Origin: Polyangiaceae bacterium
GTDB taxonomy: Bacteria > Myxococcota_A > Polyangia > Polyangiales > Polyangiaceae
NCBI GenBank assembly: GCA_965222375.1
Contig: CBDCTZ010000014.1
Span: 1,280,001 to 1,344,000 of the forward strand
Reading direction: 5' to 3'
DNA length: 64,000 bases
Below, piece by piece: positions 53,298 to 57,839 of this stretch; within the stretch, counting starts at the first letter, position 1, and each line of letters opens with the position of its first letter. Below the pieces are notes generated by a model. It was not told the DNA's origin, searched no databases, and was given only the letters and a program-made list of their open reading frames with translations. Made by a program: the position numbers and the translations under genes.

Positions 53298-56200
53298 CTA
53301 GTTCTGTTTGACCCAGCTGGTGGAGCCGACGAGCAGCTGCAGGCGCTCAATGCGGTCCAAGCGAACGTCCGGTGTGACCTCGAATTCAAGCTCGTACGCA
53401 CCGCCAAGTGGGCGGTTCTGCCACTCGGAACGCGCTACCGCGGAAATGTATGACGTCGTCCATCCGTCTTTCAGAGGGTCCAGCCAGAGTTCGGCGGCGA
53501 TGGCTTTCGCGCCTTCGATTCGACCGGTAGGTACCTCAAGGAGGCGCCAGAACCCGTCGAAATCCGTGACCCAAGGCGTGCCCGTCTGTGTGAGGTTGTA
53601 GCGCAAATACGGCTCTGAGTAGCATCCGTTGGGGTCGGTAGCTTTCACGCAGTCTCGGATGCCGGTACCCACGAAGTTGACGGCGAGCAGGTCCCAGCGC
53701 CCGTTGAACCGTTTGTCGAAGGGAGCGTTCGCGATGTCGCCGTCGCGCCGGCCCCATGGGTCGAGTGCGAACAGAAGCTTCGCCCGATCGATTGGGCCGT
53801 CGCAACCGACCGTCGCTGGCACCCACTGCGAAGTCCCTTGAGAGGTACATCGAAGGAGCCATTGCGCCGACGTTGGGAACGCCGTAACCGTCGGCGAATT
53901 CGGGTCGGTCGGATCGATCGGAACCTCGATCGGAGGAGCCGGTTGAAGCCCAGGAAGCGTGACTATGTCGATCTCGTTCGTCGCAACCGCCGCCGGCCGA
54001 CTCGCTGCATACCCGTTCACAAAGCCCTCGAGGTTTGCGCTGTAGTCGCTGAGTTTGTTCGAATAGACTGCGTCGCCAGCGGAGGAGCCCGACACCGTCA
54101 GTCCGACGGCTGCTGGAAGCGTCAGGTCGTACCCATAGATCTCGTCCGCCCAAACTCTTGGACTGGCCACGAATACCTCGTCTTTGTCCAACTCAGACAG
54201 GTTGACGACATACCGCGCCTCTATCGCTCGTCGGGCGGCGAGCCCATAGCGTCGCGCACTCTCTACCAACGCTCGCGCACGCCAAAGGTCATAGCTTCGG
54301 GAGATCCGGTACGCCGAGAATGAGGTTTTCAGACCGAACCTAACGAGATTCTGCTCGAGCCGGTGCCGCCGATCCGCCAACTCCGCATCACTCGTCAGCT
54401 TCCCCAAGTCGGCTGAACTTAATCGCAGTGACGTGACCGCGTCCCGCAAGCCTACTGCCGCATTCCCAATTTGGGCAAATGCGCCTGCCTGGGCGGCAAT
54501 CACGCTAGCTTGCGCAGGGTTGACACCAATGAGAGCAGAATCGCACGCACGCCGCTGCGCAATCAGCGGAGCGAGGCTCCAACTCCCACTTGTCTTGAAT
54601 TCTTTGGCCTGGTAGCAGAAGTCCTCGGTGCAGGGTCCCGTAGCACTCGAGAAGCTGCCGCCAACGACCTGTTTTCCCGCCACCATCGCCTCGTCCATCG
54701 CTCGAGAGCCGCACTGGTTCCGCACGTTCTGCTCCGCCGTTTGAAGCGCGACGTAGGCGGCCGCCACTGTGGTCTTCGCTGCCTCGGCGGCCTTGTGCAT
54801 CAGATCCAGTTTCTGCGGAAGGTCATTGAAAGCACTCCACTGCTGGATGAAAGCCGCTTGCAGCGAGCCGCCGCTGTAGTCGGTAAAGGCCGGGACGATC
54901 GGATGGTTCAGGCTTTCGGCGACGGGCGTTCCGACCGCAAATGTCTCGGCTGCGACTTCTGCTCCGCGTTCGTACACGAACTGATCGAGTTGGCAGTAAG
55001 TCTGCTGAGGATCCCAGTCGCTGGTGGCAGTGGGGCAGCTGGCGGGGGCAGTGAATGGGTTCGCTACCGTCTTCGCCGTGACGGACGTGTCACAGCTTGG
55101 GTTGTTGGCGCCACAGAGTCCGTCCCGTTCTTCCTTGATCCCCGCTGAGGCTTTCGCGGCCGCCGCAGCCTTCGCACCCTCATCTTCTTGTTGTAACGTG
55201 AGATTCTGCAGTGCGGATTCGACCGCTGACGTTGCCGCCGCGGCTGAGTCCTTTGCGAGCTGCAGATAAACGTCGGAACTTGTCTGTCCCGGGACGCCGC
55301 CAACTAGCTGAGCCGCGAGCGGTGGCACCCAGGCGGTCGGCAAATCGAATCCGTCAAACGCAGGCTCGGAGGGGTTCGAGCCGCGAACCGCTGTCTGCCG
55401 TCCAAGGAACATCCCCATCGCGCCCCCTGTGGCAAAATACTGCGCGTCGCGCGGAGAACTGACGCCCACCTTCACGTTTGACGCGACTACCCGAAGCTCG
55501 ACTTCTTCCCCAGGCGGAGCGGATGAATCGTTGCGAACGGCCACGAGGGTCCACACGCTTGTTGCGTCAAACTGGTCGCTTCCTGGCGTCGCGCTCACAG
55601 GTTCGAACACCAGTGGCGTGGCTATCCACAACTTAGGCATCGACTTGATCCAGACAGGCGCGGGCAGCGCGAGGGTCGCGCCGAACGCCACTGGATTGCC
55701 CGGCTCAAACGCCAGGCTCGCGAGTGTCTTGCCGTAGATGCTGGAATCTGGGTTTGCTGCAAGAGCACGTGCCCACGGGCCACGAACGGCGACAAGCCCC
55801 GTTGTCACCGTGCAGTTGTTCGGCGCCGAGCAGTTGTCCCACCAGGTGTCGCCAGGTGGAACCAACAGCTGCACGCTGTGAGCGTAGCCTCCCGGCACGG
55901 AGCGAACCTTGGTTCCGGGCAATCCAGACCCGACGGCCACATCGCGCACAACCTCTGGCCGGACGCTGGCGGTCATGGCGCCAACGTTGGCCTCGATGAG
56001 GCCCAGAATGTCGTCTGCCTGGAGAAAGTAGCTATAGAGTGTGCTTGTTGGTCCCAGCCCCGCCTGTATCCAGGCAACGCTTGAGGCTACCATTTCGCGG
56101 GTTGCCGCTTGCGCGGAAGCGGCACCCATCAGCCGTTTCGCGTCTGCGTTCTTGTGGTTGGTGCAGCCGGTCGCAAAGCAGACGTCGTCGAACGCCACCG

Positions 56201-57839
56201 CGGCCATGATAACGTCCCAAAGCTCGGAATCGATCTCCCACGGCAGTGGAAAACGCAGCGATGCGTTCCGGGTGAACGTCCCAGCGACTTCGCTTGGAAG
56301 GACGTCGGTGAACTCAGAGTCCTTGCTGAAATGGGTCACGCCATTTCCGGCGTCCGTCACGGTGCCGAGGATATTTCTGCCGCCGAACTGCGCATCGTTC
56401 AGATTGAGGCCGGGTGGGTTGCAGGTTGCCGAAGGATTGCGTCCACCAAGGGACTGCTGAAGCAGTTTGGCGAGCGTTCGAGCGTGCTCAGGGGTTATGT
56501 GATATTTCTGCCAAAGCAGGTAGGGCCCGGCACCGTATTCGTACGCAGGTGGGGTCGGAGTCGTCGGGCACGGATCCGTTGAGTTATCGCGGTAGCAGTC
56601 CGCGACCCGCAGTTCGCCCTCGATGGCCTTGTAGAGTTCCTTGGCGCTCGTGTCGACGTCAAACGGCTCGCAGCTTGCCCCGGCGTTTGCGCGCAACTCA
56701 AGACGGTCGAACCGCTTGGCCAGGGCCAGCAACTCCCGTACCTGTGGCGCGGTGACTGATGCAGTCACGTAAGGTCGTTTCAAAGCACCCGGCCAGCCCA
56801 ACCGGAGCCGCGGTGTACTCTCTTGGAATCCGACGGCCGCGTCTCCCGAAACGCTGGTCTCGGGGTTCCACGACTGCCAGGGAGTGCCTTCATCCACAAT
56901 TGCAAGCGGGTCGCCGCCGTATGCGACGGCGAGCAAGCGCTGATGCCAAGAGCCCGCACCCCAGGTTTCATCGGCCCGCGTGGCTGACACACCACCTCGC
57001 TTCGACCGGGCGCTGCGGCTGCGAGCAAAGAGGTGAAAGAGCTCCATGGAAACGATGGAATGCAACTGTACTGCCGCCGCAAAGTCCCGCCCCATCGTGA
57101 CGAGCGCACCCTTCTTCTTTGCAGGGTCGTTTGCCCAGTCCTGAAGAATGGGGATTCGCTGGCCGATGAGGGGGGTTCCACTCAGCGTTTTCGGGTTGGT
57201 CGAAAAGACCACACCGAGCAAAGCGTACTGGAGCATTGCGATCTGCACTCGCTCCCGGATGGTCTCTAGCAATAGCCTCTGGTCGGCATCGGACAGCAGG
57301 AGGGATTCGCCAGCGGACGCTCCCGGGGAGAGGGTGCGAAGCCGCTGAGCGATGCATAGATTGATGCCGGCTTGACGCAGTTCGCCATCAGCACGCTCGT
57401 GACGTGCTCGATCGTTGGGATCAATCGGCACGTGCTCGGGGACAGGCGTCAGTGGGATGCTCACCGGAAACCCGACCGGAGTGTGAGTGACTGGGTCGCA
57501 GTTGGCGGTCGGGCTTTGTCTCAAGTCGTACCAACTGCCGAAAGGATCGGGGCTCTGCGCATTGCCCATTCCCATTTTTTCGAGAATCTGCGTGAGATAC
57601 GGGTCGTTGCCGAAGAAGTTGTTTGAGAAACCTCCACCGGGCTCGGACGCTAGAGCGGAGCAGCCCGTCCAGGCGTCCGCGACGAGCAACTCGACAGTGT
57701 TGCCGTCCCAATCGCAGGGTTCCGGCGTCAGCCCGGGGATAGAAACCGATTGGCTGAAACTTCGAACGTCCCCGTCGTGACTGCTGCTGCATGCCACGGC
57801 GAGAGCAGCAATGATCCCCAGCAAGTTGCGAATGCTCAT
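53298..57839 (-). CDS. Large lipoprotein, putative TcA-like toxin-complex subunit
   Basis: Lipobox AVAC; long Ala-rich coiled-coil helices in the C-terminal third; terminal beta domain RPLGGAYELEF..LDRIERLQL. The ORF is solid; the TcA relationship is inferred. Confidence 0.6.
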   Translation of the reverse strand: MSIRNLLGIIAALAVACSSSHDGDVRSFSQSVSIPGLTPEPCDWDGNTVELLVADAWTGCSALASEPGGGFSNNFFGNDPYLTQILEKMGMGNAQSPDPFGSWYDLRQSPTANCDPVTHTPVGFPVSIPLTPVPEHVPIDPNDRARHERADGELRQAGINLCIAQRLRTLSPGASAGESLLLSDADQRLLLETIRERVQIAMLQYALLGVVFSTNPKTLSGTPLIGQRIPILQDWANDPAKKKGALVTMGRDFAAAVQLHSIVSMELFHLFARSRSARSKRGGVSATRADETWGAGSWHQRLLAVAYGGDPLAIVDEGTPWQSWNPETSVSGDAAVGFQESTPRLRLGWPGALKRPYVTASVTAPQVRELLALAKRFDRLELRANAGASCEPFDVDTSAKELYKAIEGELRVADCYRDNSTDPCPTTPTPPAYEYGAGPYLLWQKYHITPEHARTLAKLLQQSLGGRNPSATCNPPGLNLNDAQFGGRNILGTVTDAGNGVTHFSKDSEFTDVLPSEVAGTFTRNASLRFPLPWEIDSELWDVIMAAVAFDDVCFATGCTNHKNADAKRLMGAASAQAATREMVASSVAWIQAGLGPTSTLYSYFLQADDILGLIEANVGAMTASVRPEVVRDVAVGSGLPGTKVRSVPGGYAHSVQLLVPPGDTWWDNCSAPNNCTVTTGLVAVRGPWARALAANPDSSIYGKTLASLAFEPGNPVAFGATLALPAPVWIKSMPKLWIATPLVFEPVSATPGSDQFDATSVWTLVAVRNDSSAPPGEEVELRVVASNVKVGVSSPRDAQYFATGGAMGMFLGRQTAVRGSNPSEPAFDGFDLPTAWVPPLAAQLVGGVPGQTSSDVYLQLAKDSAAAATSAVESALQNLTLQQEDEGAKAAAAAKASAGIKEERDGLCGANNPSCDTSVTAKTVANPFTAPASCPTATSDWDPQQTYCQLDQFVYERGAEVAAETFAVGTPVAESLNHPIVPAFTDYSGGSLQAAFIQQWSAFNDLPQKLDLMHKAAEAAKTTVAAAYVALQTAEQNVRNQCGSRAMDEAMVAGKQVVGGSFSSATGPCTEDFCYQAKEFKTSGSWSLAPLIAQRRACDSALIGVNPAQASVIAAQAGAFAQIGNAAVGLRDAVTSLRLSSADLGKLTSDAELADRRHRLEQNLVRFGLKTSFSAYRISRSYDLWRARALVESARRYGLAARRAIEARYVVNLSELDKDEVFVASPRVWADEIYGYDLTLPAAVGLTVSGSSAGDAVYSNKLSDYSANLEGFVNGYAASRPAAVATNEIDIVTLPGLQPAPPIEVPIDPTDPNSPTVTAFPTSAQWLLRCTSQGTSQWVPATVGCDGPIDRAKLLFALDPWGRRDGDIANAPFDKRFNGRWDLLAVNFVGTGIRDCVKATDPNGCYSEPYLRYNLTQTGTPWVTDFDGFWRLLEVPTGRIEGAKAIAAELWLDPLKDGWTTSYISAVARSEWQNRPLGGAYELEFEVTPDVRLDRIERLQLLVGSTSWVKQN

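Follow-up and report, generated by a model that had tools for sequence, protein, structure and literature searches.

Can a lipoprotein that belongs to no recognised sequence family be the translocon of a Tc toxin? This question is raised by a gene in a 64,000-nucleotide stretch (hereafter the window) of contig CBDCTZ010000014.1 from a Polyangiaceae bacterium, which encodes a 1513-amino-acid protein that we call A and lies in the same row of genes as a TcB–TcC fusion (BC). Tc toxins have been studied as insecticidal toxins, as toxins of mammalian cells and as programmable protein injectors. A first-pass annotation of this DNA had proposed that the protein might be a divergent TcA-like translocon, and the results presented below lead us to conclude that this proposal was largely right: we consider it likely that Polyangia-type myxobacteria have a Tc-like toxin system that is compact and exported by Sec, and that the 1513-amino-acid protein serves as its A component. 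This reading is based on the match between the predicted fold of A and TcA structures, on the lipobox of A, on the operon, on the pairing of A with BC, on signal peptides and on the toxin tips carried by BC.

The predicted fold of the C-terminal half

Residues 790–1513 of A were modelled with AlphaFold2 from 32 sequences (mean pLDDT 80.0, pTM 0.55). The model opens with a segment that is mostly without secondary structure (residues 817–853), continues with helices at 854–909, a small Cys-rich insertion at 910–943 and long helices at 992–1054, 1090–1167 and 1174–1210, and closes with an all-beta domain at 1283–1511. A low-confidence loop, residues 1055–1089, lies between the first two of the long helices and between the cysteines C1043 and C1099. 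The first-pass annotation had described long helices flanking a small Cys/Gly hairpin and a terminal beta domain, and had likened this layout to that of TcA, in which a hairpin channel is followed by a TcB-binding beta domain; the model agrees with the description, and the comparison with solved structures bears out the likeness. In a Foldseek search of the model against the PDB, ranks 1–22 are all TcA chains (XptA2, YenA2, TcdA1, XptA1, TcdA4 and TcaA–TcaB), with E-values from 5.4e-9 to 7.1e-5 and a probability of 1.00, so that TcdA1 and YenA2, the two proteins with which a comparison had been suggested, are both among them; the first match outside TcA is polyomavirus VP1, at an E-value of 8.4e-4. 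VIA-align superposes positions 31–720 of the model on residues 1988–2516 of TcdA1 in its pore state (5lki_A) with a Z of 15.0 and a root-mean-square deviation (rmsd) of 3.8 Å over 268 residues, and the model on XptA1 with a Z of 14.1 and an rmsd of 3.7 Å over 259 residues. Twenty TcA chains score between Z 9.5 and 15.0; the first row unrelated to TcA is a BAR domain at Z 8.4, which the 16 best TcA chains exceed by at least 4.6 Z units. The isolated TcB-binding domain of TcdA1 (6l7i_A, residues 2327–2516) aligns with positions 495–720 of the model, that is residues 1284–1509 of A (Z 8.2, rmsd 3.7, 136 aligned).

According to the text available from PMC6795518, residue 1972 of TcdA1 is the last of its helical shell, after which comes a linker, and linker, channel and TcB-binding domain form the conserved core of all TcAs. 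Given that description and the TcdA1 range of the alignment, the match would span exactly this conserved core, in the same order and up to the C-terminus of both proteins. The VIA alignments to TcdA1 start within segment 817–853 (positions 30–41 of the model against TcdA1 1988–2008), in which D829, P839 and P840 are invariant and W837 and V838 near-invariant in an alignment of 23 homologues, and this segment is a candidate for the counterpart of the stretched TcA linker. The loop at the tip of the hairpin varies in length and is Gly/Ser/Ala-rich across the same 23 homologues, and the flanking C1043 and C1099 are invariant; the two cysteines may form a disulfide clamp, and the loop may insert into a membrane. 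Conservation in the alignment peaks in the last 330 residues, and the beta domain is the most conserved part of A. The model predicts a helical hairpin channel and, after it, a domain that would be a TcB-binding domain by its fold, and supports the view that A works like TcA.

Gene model and lipobox

The longest open frame around the A gene is 53298–58109 (minus). An AAGGAG stands before the ATG at 57839, and this start codon shares an ATGA with the stop of the gene upstream; because of this spacing and overlap the 1513-amino-acid form was accepted; the TAG stop occupies 53298–53300. The entry for A in a public protein collection starts six codons earlier (1519 amino acids), a difference that affects none of the results. 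All four peptides quoted in the first-pass annotation, YLQLAKDSAAAATSAVESALQNL, LDLMHKAAEAAKTTVAAAYVALQTAEQ, ARALVESARRYGLAARRAIEARY and RPLGGAYELEF..LDRIERLQLLV, are present in the translation. The gene is not a chance open reading frame (ORF), since a word-indexed search returned 35 relatives, mostly of 1490–1680 amino acids, and an exhaustive search with a hidden Markov model of the last 344 residues returned 991 clusters at 50% identity (E ≤ 0.001), 836 of them at E ≤ 1e-30. Few relatives carry a source name, and those that do were obtained from metagenome bins of Polyangiaceae or Myxococcales.

A begins with a short basic stretch followed by a hydrophobic stretch and the motif AVAC, whose cysteine is residue 17. 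This cysteine is kept in at least 90% of the 23-sequence alignment, and a relaxed lipobox pattern occurs within the first 60 amino acids of 27 of the 35 homologues; among the other eight, six have a cysteine right after the hydrophobic stretch when inspected by eye and two lack the N-terminus. A is thus predicted, by the lipobox pattern alone, to be a bacterial lipoprotein exported by Sec and processed by signal peptidase II (SPII), and the lipid anchor that the first-pass annotation had attributed to it appears to be a property of the family. The same annotation had called the protein disulfide-rich, which is a fair description: the database form of A contains 25 cysteines, and in the 23-sequence alignment ten Cys columns are invariant and six more, Cys17 included, are conserved to at least 90%.

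Pairing of A with BC

A belongs to a row of five head-to-tail minus-strand genes encoding, in this order, an FGE-sulfatase lipoprotein, a second FGE-sulfatase lipoprotein, A, a 562-amino-acid lipoprotein and BC (coordinates are collected in Table 1). The genes are tightly packed: the second FGE-like gene and A are joined by the ATGA, the ATG of the 562-amino-acid gene lies 2 nt past the A stop, and the start of BC overlaps the stop of the 562-amino-acid gene. A is therefore encoded beside TcB and TcC genes, and this arrangement is conserved. Among 26 related loci, taken from contigs with one genome per species and in which BC was located by tblastn, a BC fusion is found downstream of A on the same strand in 23. 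The three others are two loci (L014 and L024) whose contigs end 2 and 129 bases past the A match, and a broken remnant (L026) that retains only residues 1122–1513, split in two, with ORFs of the opposite strand after it. All 12 loci with both a full A and enough upstream DNA have an FGE-sulfatase-domain gene immediately upstream of A, and the four other loci of the genome studied here have an FGE homologue in this place; the 562-amino-acid protein is encoded in seven of the 26 related loci, six times between A and BC and once upstream. In L019 (161–6051, 9057–14848) and L022 (3051–8824, 8946–14893) the pair formed by the FGE-like gene and A is tandemly duplicated before a single BC. The locus most alike in layout, L001, is labelled Candidatus Eisenbacteria, whereas every other locus has a label of Polyangiales, Myxococcales or delta-proteobacteria; gene transfer or a mistake in binning could explain this exception.

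The genome to which the window belongs contains five A–BC loci, and both BC and the 562-amino-acid protein are present in all five. At the short-A paralogue on contig 9, A is 40% identical to the A of the window, while its 562-amino-acid neighbour is 93% and its BC neighbour 94% identical. The three remaining loci (L035:3813–10604, plus; L036:10633–17850, minus; L037:10475–17341, minus) encode a long class of A of 2264–2406 amino acids, and keep the order FGE-like protein, A, 562-amino-acid protein, BC. Long and short A have in common only the last 200 residues or so, that is the beta domain. The long-class proteins match no Pfam family, and the one of the three that was checked against PDB sequences gave no match.

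The BC fusion and its toxin tips

BC contains the Pfam domains SpvB, FG-GAP, TcdB_toxin_midN and RHS, and the NCBIfam models Rhs_assc_core and YD repeat. Its N-terminus resembles a Sec signal peptide, after which comes a linker of low complexity, about 150 residues long, and a signal-peptide-like N-terminus is present on all 13 BC homologues inspected. A hydrophobic stretch rich in Gly and Ala opens the variable tip of the window's BC, and such stretches open 7 of the 16 tips inspected. A Pfam family was recognised in 6 of the 15 toxin tips scanned (Table 1) and in none of the other nine, among which is the tip encoded in the window. At L005, an ORF of the SMI1_KNR4/SUKH family (30.1 bits, cut-off 25.4) overlaps the stop of a BC gene with a nuclease tip; at L036, the ORF overlapping the BC stop encodes 105 amino acids with a signal peptide and has a sub-threshold match to Imm58 (20.8 against 25). 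Judged from its sequence, with a signal peptide, SpvB, propeller, RHS repeats and a variable tip, and with the family's SUKH gene in L005, BC would be a polymorphic toxin of the TcdB/TcaC-like type. Variable tips accompanied by an immunity gene are the signature of polymorphic toxins used between bacteria.

The same genome also contains matches to the end of the RHS core (BC residues about 2216–2289) away from full BC genes, at C13 (8401, 18073, 26024, 43882), C5 (622956, 631190) and C9 (160772, 168258); these orphan core and tip matches look like recombination cassettes. A partial BC lies at C13:31156–36039.

Distribution in Myxococcota

We examined 301 Myxococcota genomes, the one studied here included; they are mutually related, so the counts carry no statistical claim. 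The A-like profile matches in 10 of the 301, the TcA family PF18276 in 14 and TcdB_toxin_midN in 92, mostly on ORFs of 2000–2800 amino acids. The ten genomes with an A-like protein belong to the same family as the genome of the window (6 of 23, plus this genome itself) or to a sister family (3 of 18), and no genome among the 301 has both the A-like profile and PF18276. TcdB_toxin_midN is found in 12 of the 14 PF18276 genomes and, with the exception of G095, in all A-like genomes (9 of 10). In this independent sample, A and BC matches lie side by side in G165, G275 (twice), G105 (twice), G280 and G220. In G095, a 1.8-Mb single-contig genome of the same family without a TcdB_toxin_midN match, A is in pieces separated by TGA, TAA and TAG stops (G095:C1:829916–830779), and the locus appears to be decaying. 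Seventy-one of the 92 BC-positive genomes have neither the A-like family nor PF18276, and other, unrecognised A partners may exist among them.

The N-terminal body

The AlphaFold2 model of residues 18–829 is one compact body (pLDDT 82.6, pTM 0.90) made of helical bundles and of a beta sandwich at residues about 621–803 that matches Ig- and FN3-like folds. Foldseek gave no PDB match to this model at E ≤ 0.001. VIA run over 48,161 representatives placed MSP1 first (Z 10.0), followed by generic helical proteins, and VIA run on the top 1000 Foldseek matches paired the sandwich with IL-2R beta (Z 7.2) and also gave STAT-like bundles, these with a Z near 7. A search of the ESM Atlas with the N-terminal part of A returned no usable match, and the Pfam scans of the A family members that were examined found no family on the body of the protein.

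Neighbouring genes

The 562-amino-acid lipoprotein consists of a Gly-rich linker and a Cys-rich stretch followed by repeated beta-strand units, and matches no Pfam or NCBIfam family. Its repeat pattern leads us to guess at a propeller fold, and its best ESM Atlas matches (0.83, 0.78 and 0.78), which we take as leads only, are to Myxococcota clusters with DUF4215 or MopE motifs. The fusions found past the beta domain in some A relatives (described below) may correspond to this separate lipoprotein. We also considered that the 562-amino-acid protein is a split-off part of A, as in YenA1/YenA2, and rejected this idea because channel and platform are already present at the C-terminus of A by itself and because the gene is absent from 19 of the 26 related loci. 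As for the two FGE-like genes, relatives of the copy at 58664..59659 precede long-class A genes.

Upstream of the operon, an OmpR-type response regulator is encoded at 60042–60809 (minus), with weak relatives upstream in L001, L035 and L038, and is adjoined by an 868-amino-acid protein with seven DUF4379 treble-clef zinc-finger stretches (60778–63384, plus). On the other side, 1.6 kb past BC, an rve-type integrase (PF00665, E 2e-10; 40296–41549, plus) and an AAA_22 ATPase (41549–42343, plus) are encoded with overlapping start and stop; this pair may be a transposon bordering the toxin locus.

Table 1. Features of the A–BC locus, with positions in the window
Feature	Position	Strand	Basis
FGE-sulfatase-domain lipoprotein	58664..59659	minus	Pfam PF03781, E 5.6e-20
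FGE-sulfatase-domain lipoprotein directly upstream of A	57836..58648	minus	Pfam PF03781, E 3.6e-21
A-like gene, 1513-amino-acid lipoprotein and TAG stop	53298..57839	minus	ORF, translation, homologues
Putative signal peptide with lipobox, residues 1–17, Cys17	57789..57839	minus	Pattern read from sequence
Predicted N-terminal body, residues 18–816, helical bundles and one Ig-like beta sandwich	55392..57788	minus	AlphaFold2
Conserved extended Pro/Gly-rich segment, candidate TcA-linker counterpart, residues 817–853	55281..55391	minus	Model, alignment
Channel-like helical region (predicted), residues 854–1282	53994..55280	minus	Model secondary structure, Foldseek, VIA
Putative tip loop between invariant C1043 and C1099	54543..54713	minus	Low pLDDT, alignment
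C-terminal beta domain, TcB-binding-domain-like, residues 1283–1513	53301..53993	minus	Fold alignment, conservation
562-amino-acid lipoprotein between A and BC	51607..53295	minus	Translation
TcB–TcC fusion (BC), about 2540 amino acids, N-terminal signal peptide	43988..51610	minus	Pfam, NCBIfam
Hypervariable toxin tip of BC, 253 amino acids past the PISYVDPEG core end	43991..44749	minus	Sequence
Tip families: TseH-like (L036, same genome); Tox-HNH-HHH (L005); HNH with PT-HINT (L002); PT-HINT (L013, L023); DUF3990 (L037)			

Alternative readings

Several results weigh against a TcA role for A, and they are considered here together with three other explanations of the same locus. No TcA shell, neuraminidase-like domain or knot is among the matches listed for the N-terminal 800 amino acids, in searches that cannot exclude their presence, and the 50 rows listed in either of the two VIA runs made with the N-terminal model include no TcA chain. 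The channel helices of A appear to be shorter than those of the TcdA1 channel. Some members of the family extend for 300–3000 residues past the beta domain, with RCC1, Kelch or SBBP propellers or with Laminin_G_3 (P0058, P0074, P0101, P0049, P0097, P0156 and P0035 carry such additions, and one member reaches 4813 amino acids), which counts against us as such additions would be unusual if the beta domain is the top docking face. A could be a dock or an anchor only, a lipoprotein that binds BC via its beta domain and holds the cocoon on the envelope or on vesicles without forming a channel, the toxin entering by another route such as opening of the cocoon after membrane fusion. The lipid anchor, the undetected shell and the seemingly short helices would all suit such a function, as would the large share of BC-positive genomes with neither A type (71 of 92), from which it may be argued that BC proteins often work without a channel. 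We nevertheless regard this explanation as rather unlikely, since the hairpin region, and not the beta domain alone, aligns with the TcA channel, and since a mere anchor has no obvious need for a conserved hairpin or for an invariant Cys pair framing a Gly-rich tip.

A second explanation places A at the inner face of the outer membrane of the producing cell, where it would act as a secretion device and not as an injector, using its TcA-like needle either to pass the toxin tip outwards or to expose BC. Sec-type signals on both A and BC imply that the two proteins meet in the periplasm, and there is no evident path through the outer membrane for a folded cocoon of about 250 kDa, no secretion-system gene having been seen among the inspected genes beside the operon. 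Such an export conduit is quite improbable in our view, because an unfolded tip released into the medium would not bring nucleases into the cytoplasm of a target, and because the Ig-like domain of A and the propeller or lectin-like additions in its relatives look more like target-binding parts. The BC of the window itself also counts against the reading that we prefer: its tip matches no Pfam family, and no convincing ORF for an immunity gene was found 3′ of it (42510–43982 examined). The ORFs in this interval were not accepted as genes, as they have a flat codon-position GC (GC3 of 0.65–0.68, against 0.70–0.78 for the operon genes) and no Pfam family.

The other adverse results concern the likeness to TcA itself. 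A matches no Pfam and no NCBIfam family at E ≤ 0.01, which agrees with the earlier remark that its N-terminal part has no recognisable domain. A profile of the 23-sequence A family matches no chain among the PDB sequences at E ≤ 10, the single row obtained by phmmer of A against the same sequences, mL80 at E 0.08, is noise, and PF18276 (TcA_TcB_BD) has no match at E ≤ 10 over the whole 10.56-Mb genome. An hhalign comparison of the C-terminal 344-amino-acid profile of A (23 sequences) with four canonical TcA C-termini gave a probability of 0.11 and an E-value of 0.52; the canonical side of this comparison is shallow, being made of the C-terminal 507 to 791 residues of four TcA-like ORFs found via PF18276 in Myxococcota genomes. 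In view of this negative result, the likeness of A to TcA is seen at the level of fold only. At that level, global TM-scores to TcA are low (0.18–0.27), and most superpositions on TcA have an rmsd of 30–42 Å, the tight fit (3.7–3.8 Å over 259–268 residues) being obtained in 2 of 20 rows; an rmsd above 30 Å is to be expected if a lone model has other angles between its domains than the assembly. According to the note that accompanies VIA, models with long helices can reach a Z of about 13 by chance, and the beta domain also resembles the P domains of furin and Kex2 (Z 6.2–6.8, against 8.2 for TcdA1). A complex prediction with four copies of the beta domain (residues 1269–1513) scored 0.00 in both runs (mark 0.42) and gives no answer either way. 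A third explanation attributes the match in fold to artefact or convergence, long amphipathic helices and a jelly-roll domain scoring against TcA by coincidence, and makes A an unrelated envelope lipoprotein merely encoded beside BC genes. It would be in line with the absence of sequence and profile similarity, with the low TM-scores, with the middling Z values that helical models reach by chance and with a model built from so few sequences, and is nonetheless highly improbable, as TcA chains alone fill the first 22 Foldseek ranks, the alignment is colinear over about 690 residues of the model and ends at the C-terminus of both proteins, the best TcA chains stand well clear of the first unrelated row, and BC, encoded nearby, is the very partner that a TcA would be expected to have.

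We thus retain the reading of A as a TcA-like component. Going by the predicted structure, A would have the function and the core fold of TcA; it falls outside TcA by sequence, has no recognisable shell and would follow another export route, so that it can be called a member of the TcA family in part. The target class of A is probably also different from that of TcA. In other words, A is probably a Sec-exported, lipid-anchored, compact TcA analogue that serves bacterial warfare.

Proposed mechanism and significance

The following sequence of events can be proposed. A would be exported by Sec, lipidated and held on a membrane of the cell envelope. Sorting of lipoproteins depends on the residue at position +2, and since this residue is Ser in A, the outer membrane is the most likely location. 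A would then assemble into a ring in which each subunit gives its helical hairpin to a central channel, while the C-terminal beta domains would form a platform or funnel onto which the BC cocoon docks by its propeller. The large shell of TcA would be replaced by the N-terminal body, which includes the Ig-like domain and may serve to bind the target. Once triggered, the Gly-rich loop at the tip, clamped by a C1043–C1099 disulfide, would insert into the target membrane, and the toxin tip, released autoproteolytically inside the cocoon, would pass through the channel. The FGE-sulfatase-like and 562-amino-acid lipoproteins are probably structural or targeting accessories. The HNH nuclease and TseH-like cell-wall hydrolase tips, together with the SUKH gene at one locus, suggest that the target is most likely another bacterium, be it prey, competitor or non-kin; a complex that forms in the envelope and carries toxins of an antibacterial kind would probably act on a neighbouring bacterium. 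It might reach this neighbour by cell contact, in vesicles or by outer-membrane exchange, the last idea coming from the transfer of lipoprotein toxins between myxobacteria.

A wider view, which we put forward only tentatively and which may well prove too broad, is that Polyangia possess a second lineage of Tc-like injectors, not recognised until now, composed of a lipid-anchored mini-TcA of about 1500 amino acids (with a sister class of 2300 amino acids), an FGE-fold lipoprotein, often a propeller lipoprotein and a Sec-exported BC, assembled in the envelope and not in the cytoplasm, and used to bring polymorphic antibacterial toxins into bacteria nearby, for instance upon membrane contact, vesicle fusion or outer-membrane exchange. 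A search of the full-text literature, whose coverage leaves most subscription journals and supplements outside, found no description of a TcA-like partner that is a lipoprotein or comes from myxobacteria, and the Tc census in PMC7861908 nowhere uses the terms Myxococc-, Deltaproteobacteria, lipoprotein or signal peptide. If our reading is right, a lipid-anchored, disulfide-rich protein of 1500 amino acids that retains nothing but the channel and the docking platform would represent the minimal working core of the Tc machine, and this machine could be assembled outside the cytoplasm. Its use would extend to conflicts between bacteria, as indicated by nuclease and cell-wall hydrolase tips and by a SUKH gene, and on the wider view Tc-type translocons would be weapons of bacterial warfare and predation besides being anti-animal toxins. 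On that view at least some of the many RHS cocoons that are exported by Sec but orphan would also gain a machine for their delivery. A also bears on a question left open in the available text of PMC13018210, namely how the Sec-exported RHS or teneurin-like toxins of Myxococcota reach their target.

Comparison with known systems

The solved A components are shell-and-syringe proteins of about 2000–2500 residues, and we know of no signal peptide on any of them. With TcA proteins such as TcdA1, XptA1/XptA2, TcdA4 and YenA1–YenA2, A would share the C-terminal order of an extended segment, a long helical hairpin and a terminal beta domain, and its gene likewise adjoins a TcB/TcC gene. A differs from them in being about 1000 amino acids shorter, in having no recognised shell, set of receptor-binding domains or neuraminidase-like domain, in its many conserved cysteines, in its lack of Pfam or profile similarity, and in its partner, a BC fusion with a signal peptide and tips of an antibacterial type. 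A precedent for a reduced A component is TcaA–TcaB of Yersinia pseudotuberculosis (6rwb_A, with which the model of A matches at Z 13.1), which indicates that a TcA with a reduced shell can work. From the text available in PMC6795518, TcaA–TcaB has no receptor-binding domain but keeps a helical shell with pseudo-repeats, a trefoil knot and a neuraminidase-like domain, none of which is recognised in A, and it is larger, with about 2000 residues in total. The classical system is also present in the same phylum, in 14 of the 301 genomes, with PF18276 ORFs of up to 3626 amino acids beside BC genes; at two such loci (L043 and L044), in contrast with the locus described here, TcA and BC are both without a signal peptide. 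As for how classical Tc toxins leave the cell, lysis dependent on a type 10 secretion system (T10SS) is reported for Yersinia entomophaga in the accessible part of PMC10847048.

[quoted passage not shown] (2012), for which the text searched of PMC3482391 lists a signal peptide, SpvB, an integrin-like propeller, RHS repeats, HINT processing and immunity genes, delta-proteobacteria being among the hosts. The description covers only the BC protein, and that searched text makes no mention of TcdA, TcaA or TcaB or of an A-type partner. The teneurin-like proteins of Myxococcota are, in the portion of PMC13018210 available to us, polymorphic toxins with an RHS/YD shell that are predicted Sec/SPII lipoproteins with a proposed role in bacterial warfare, and for which, according to the authors, there is no evident delivery machinery. 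They belong to another shell family (FN-plug, NHL, YD) and are single polypeptides, whereas the BC cocoon described here would be served by a separate, TcA-like partner encoded beside it.

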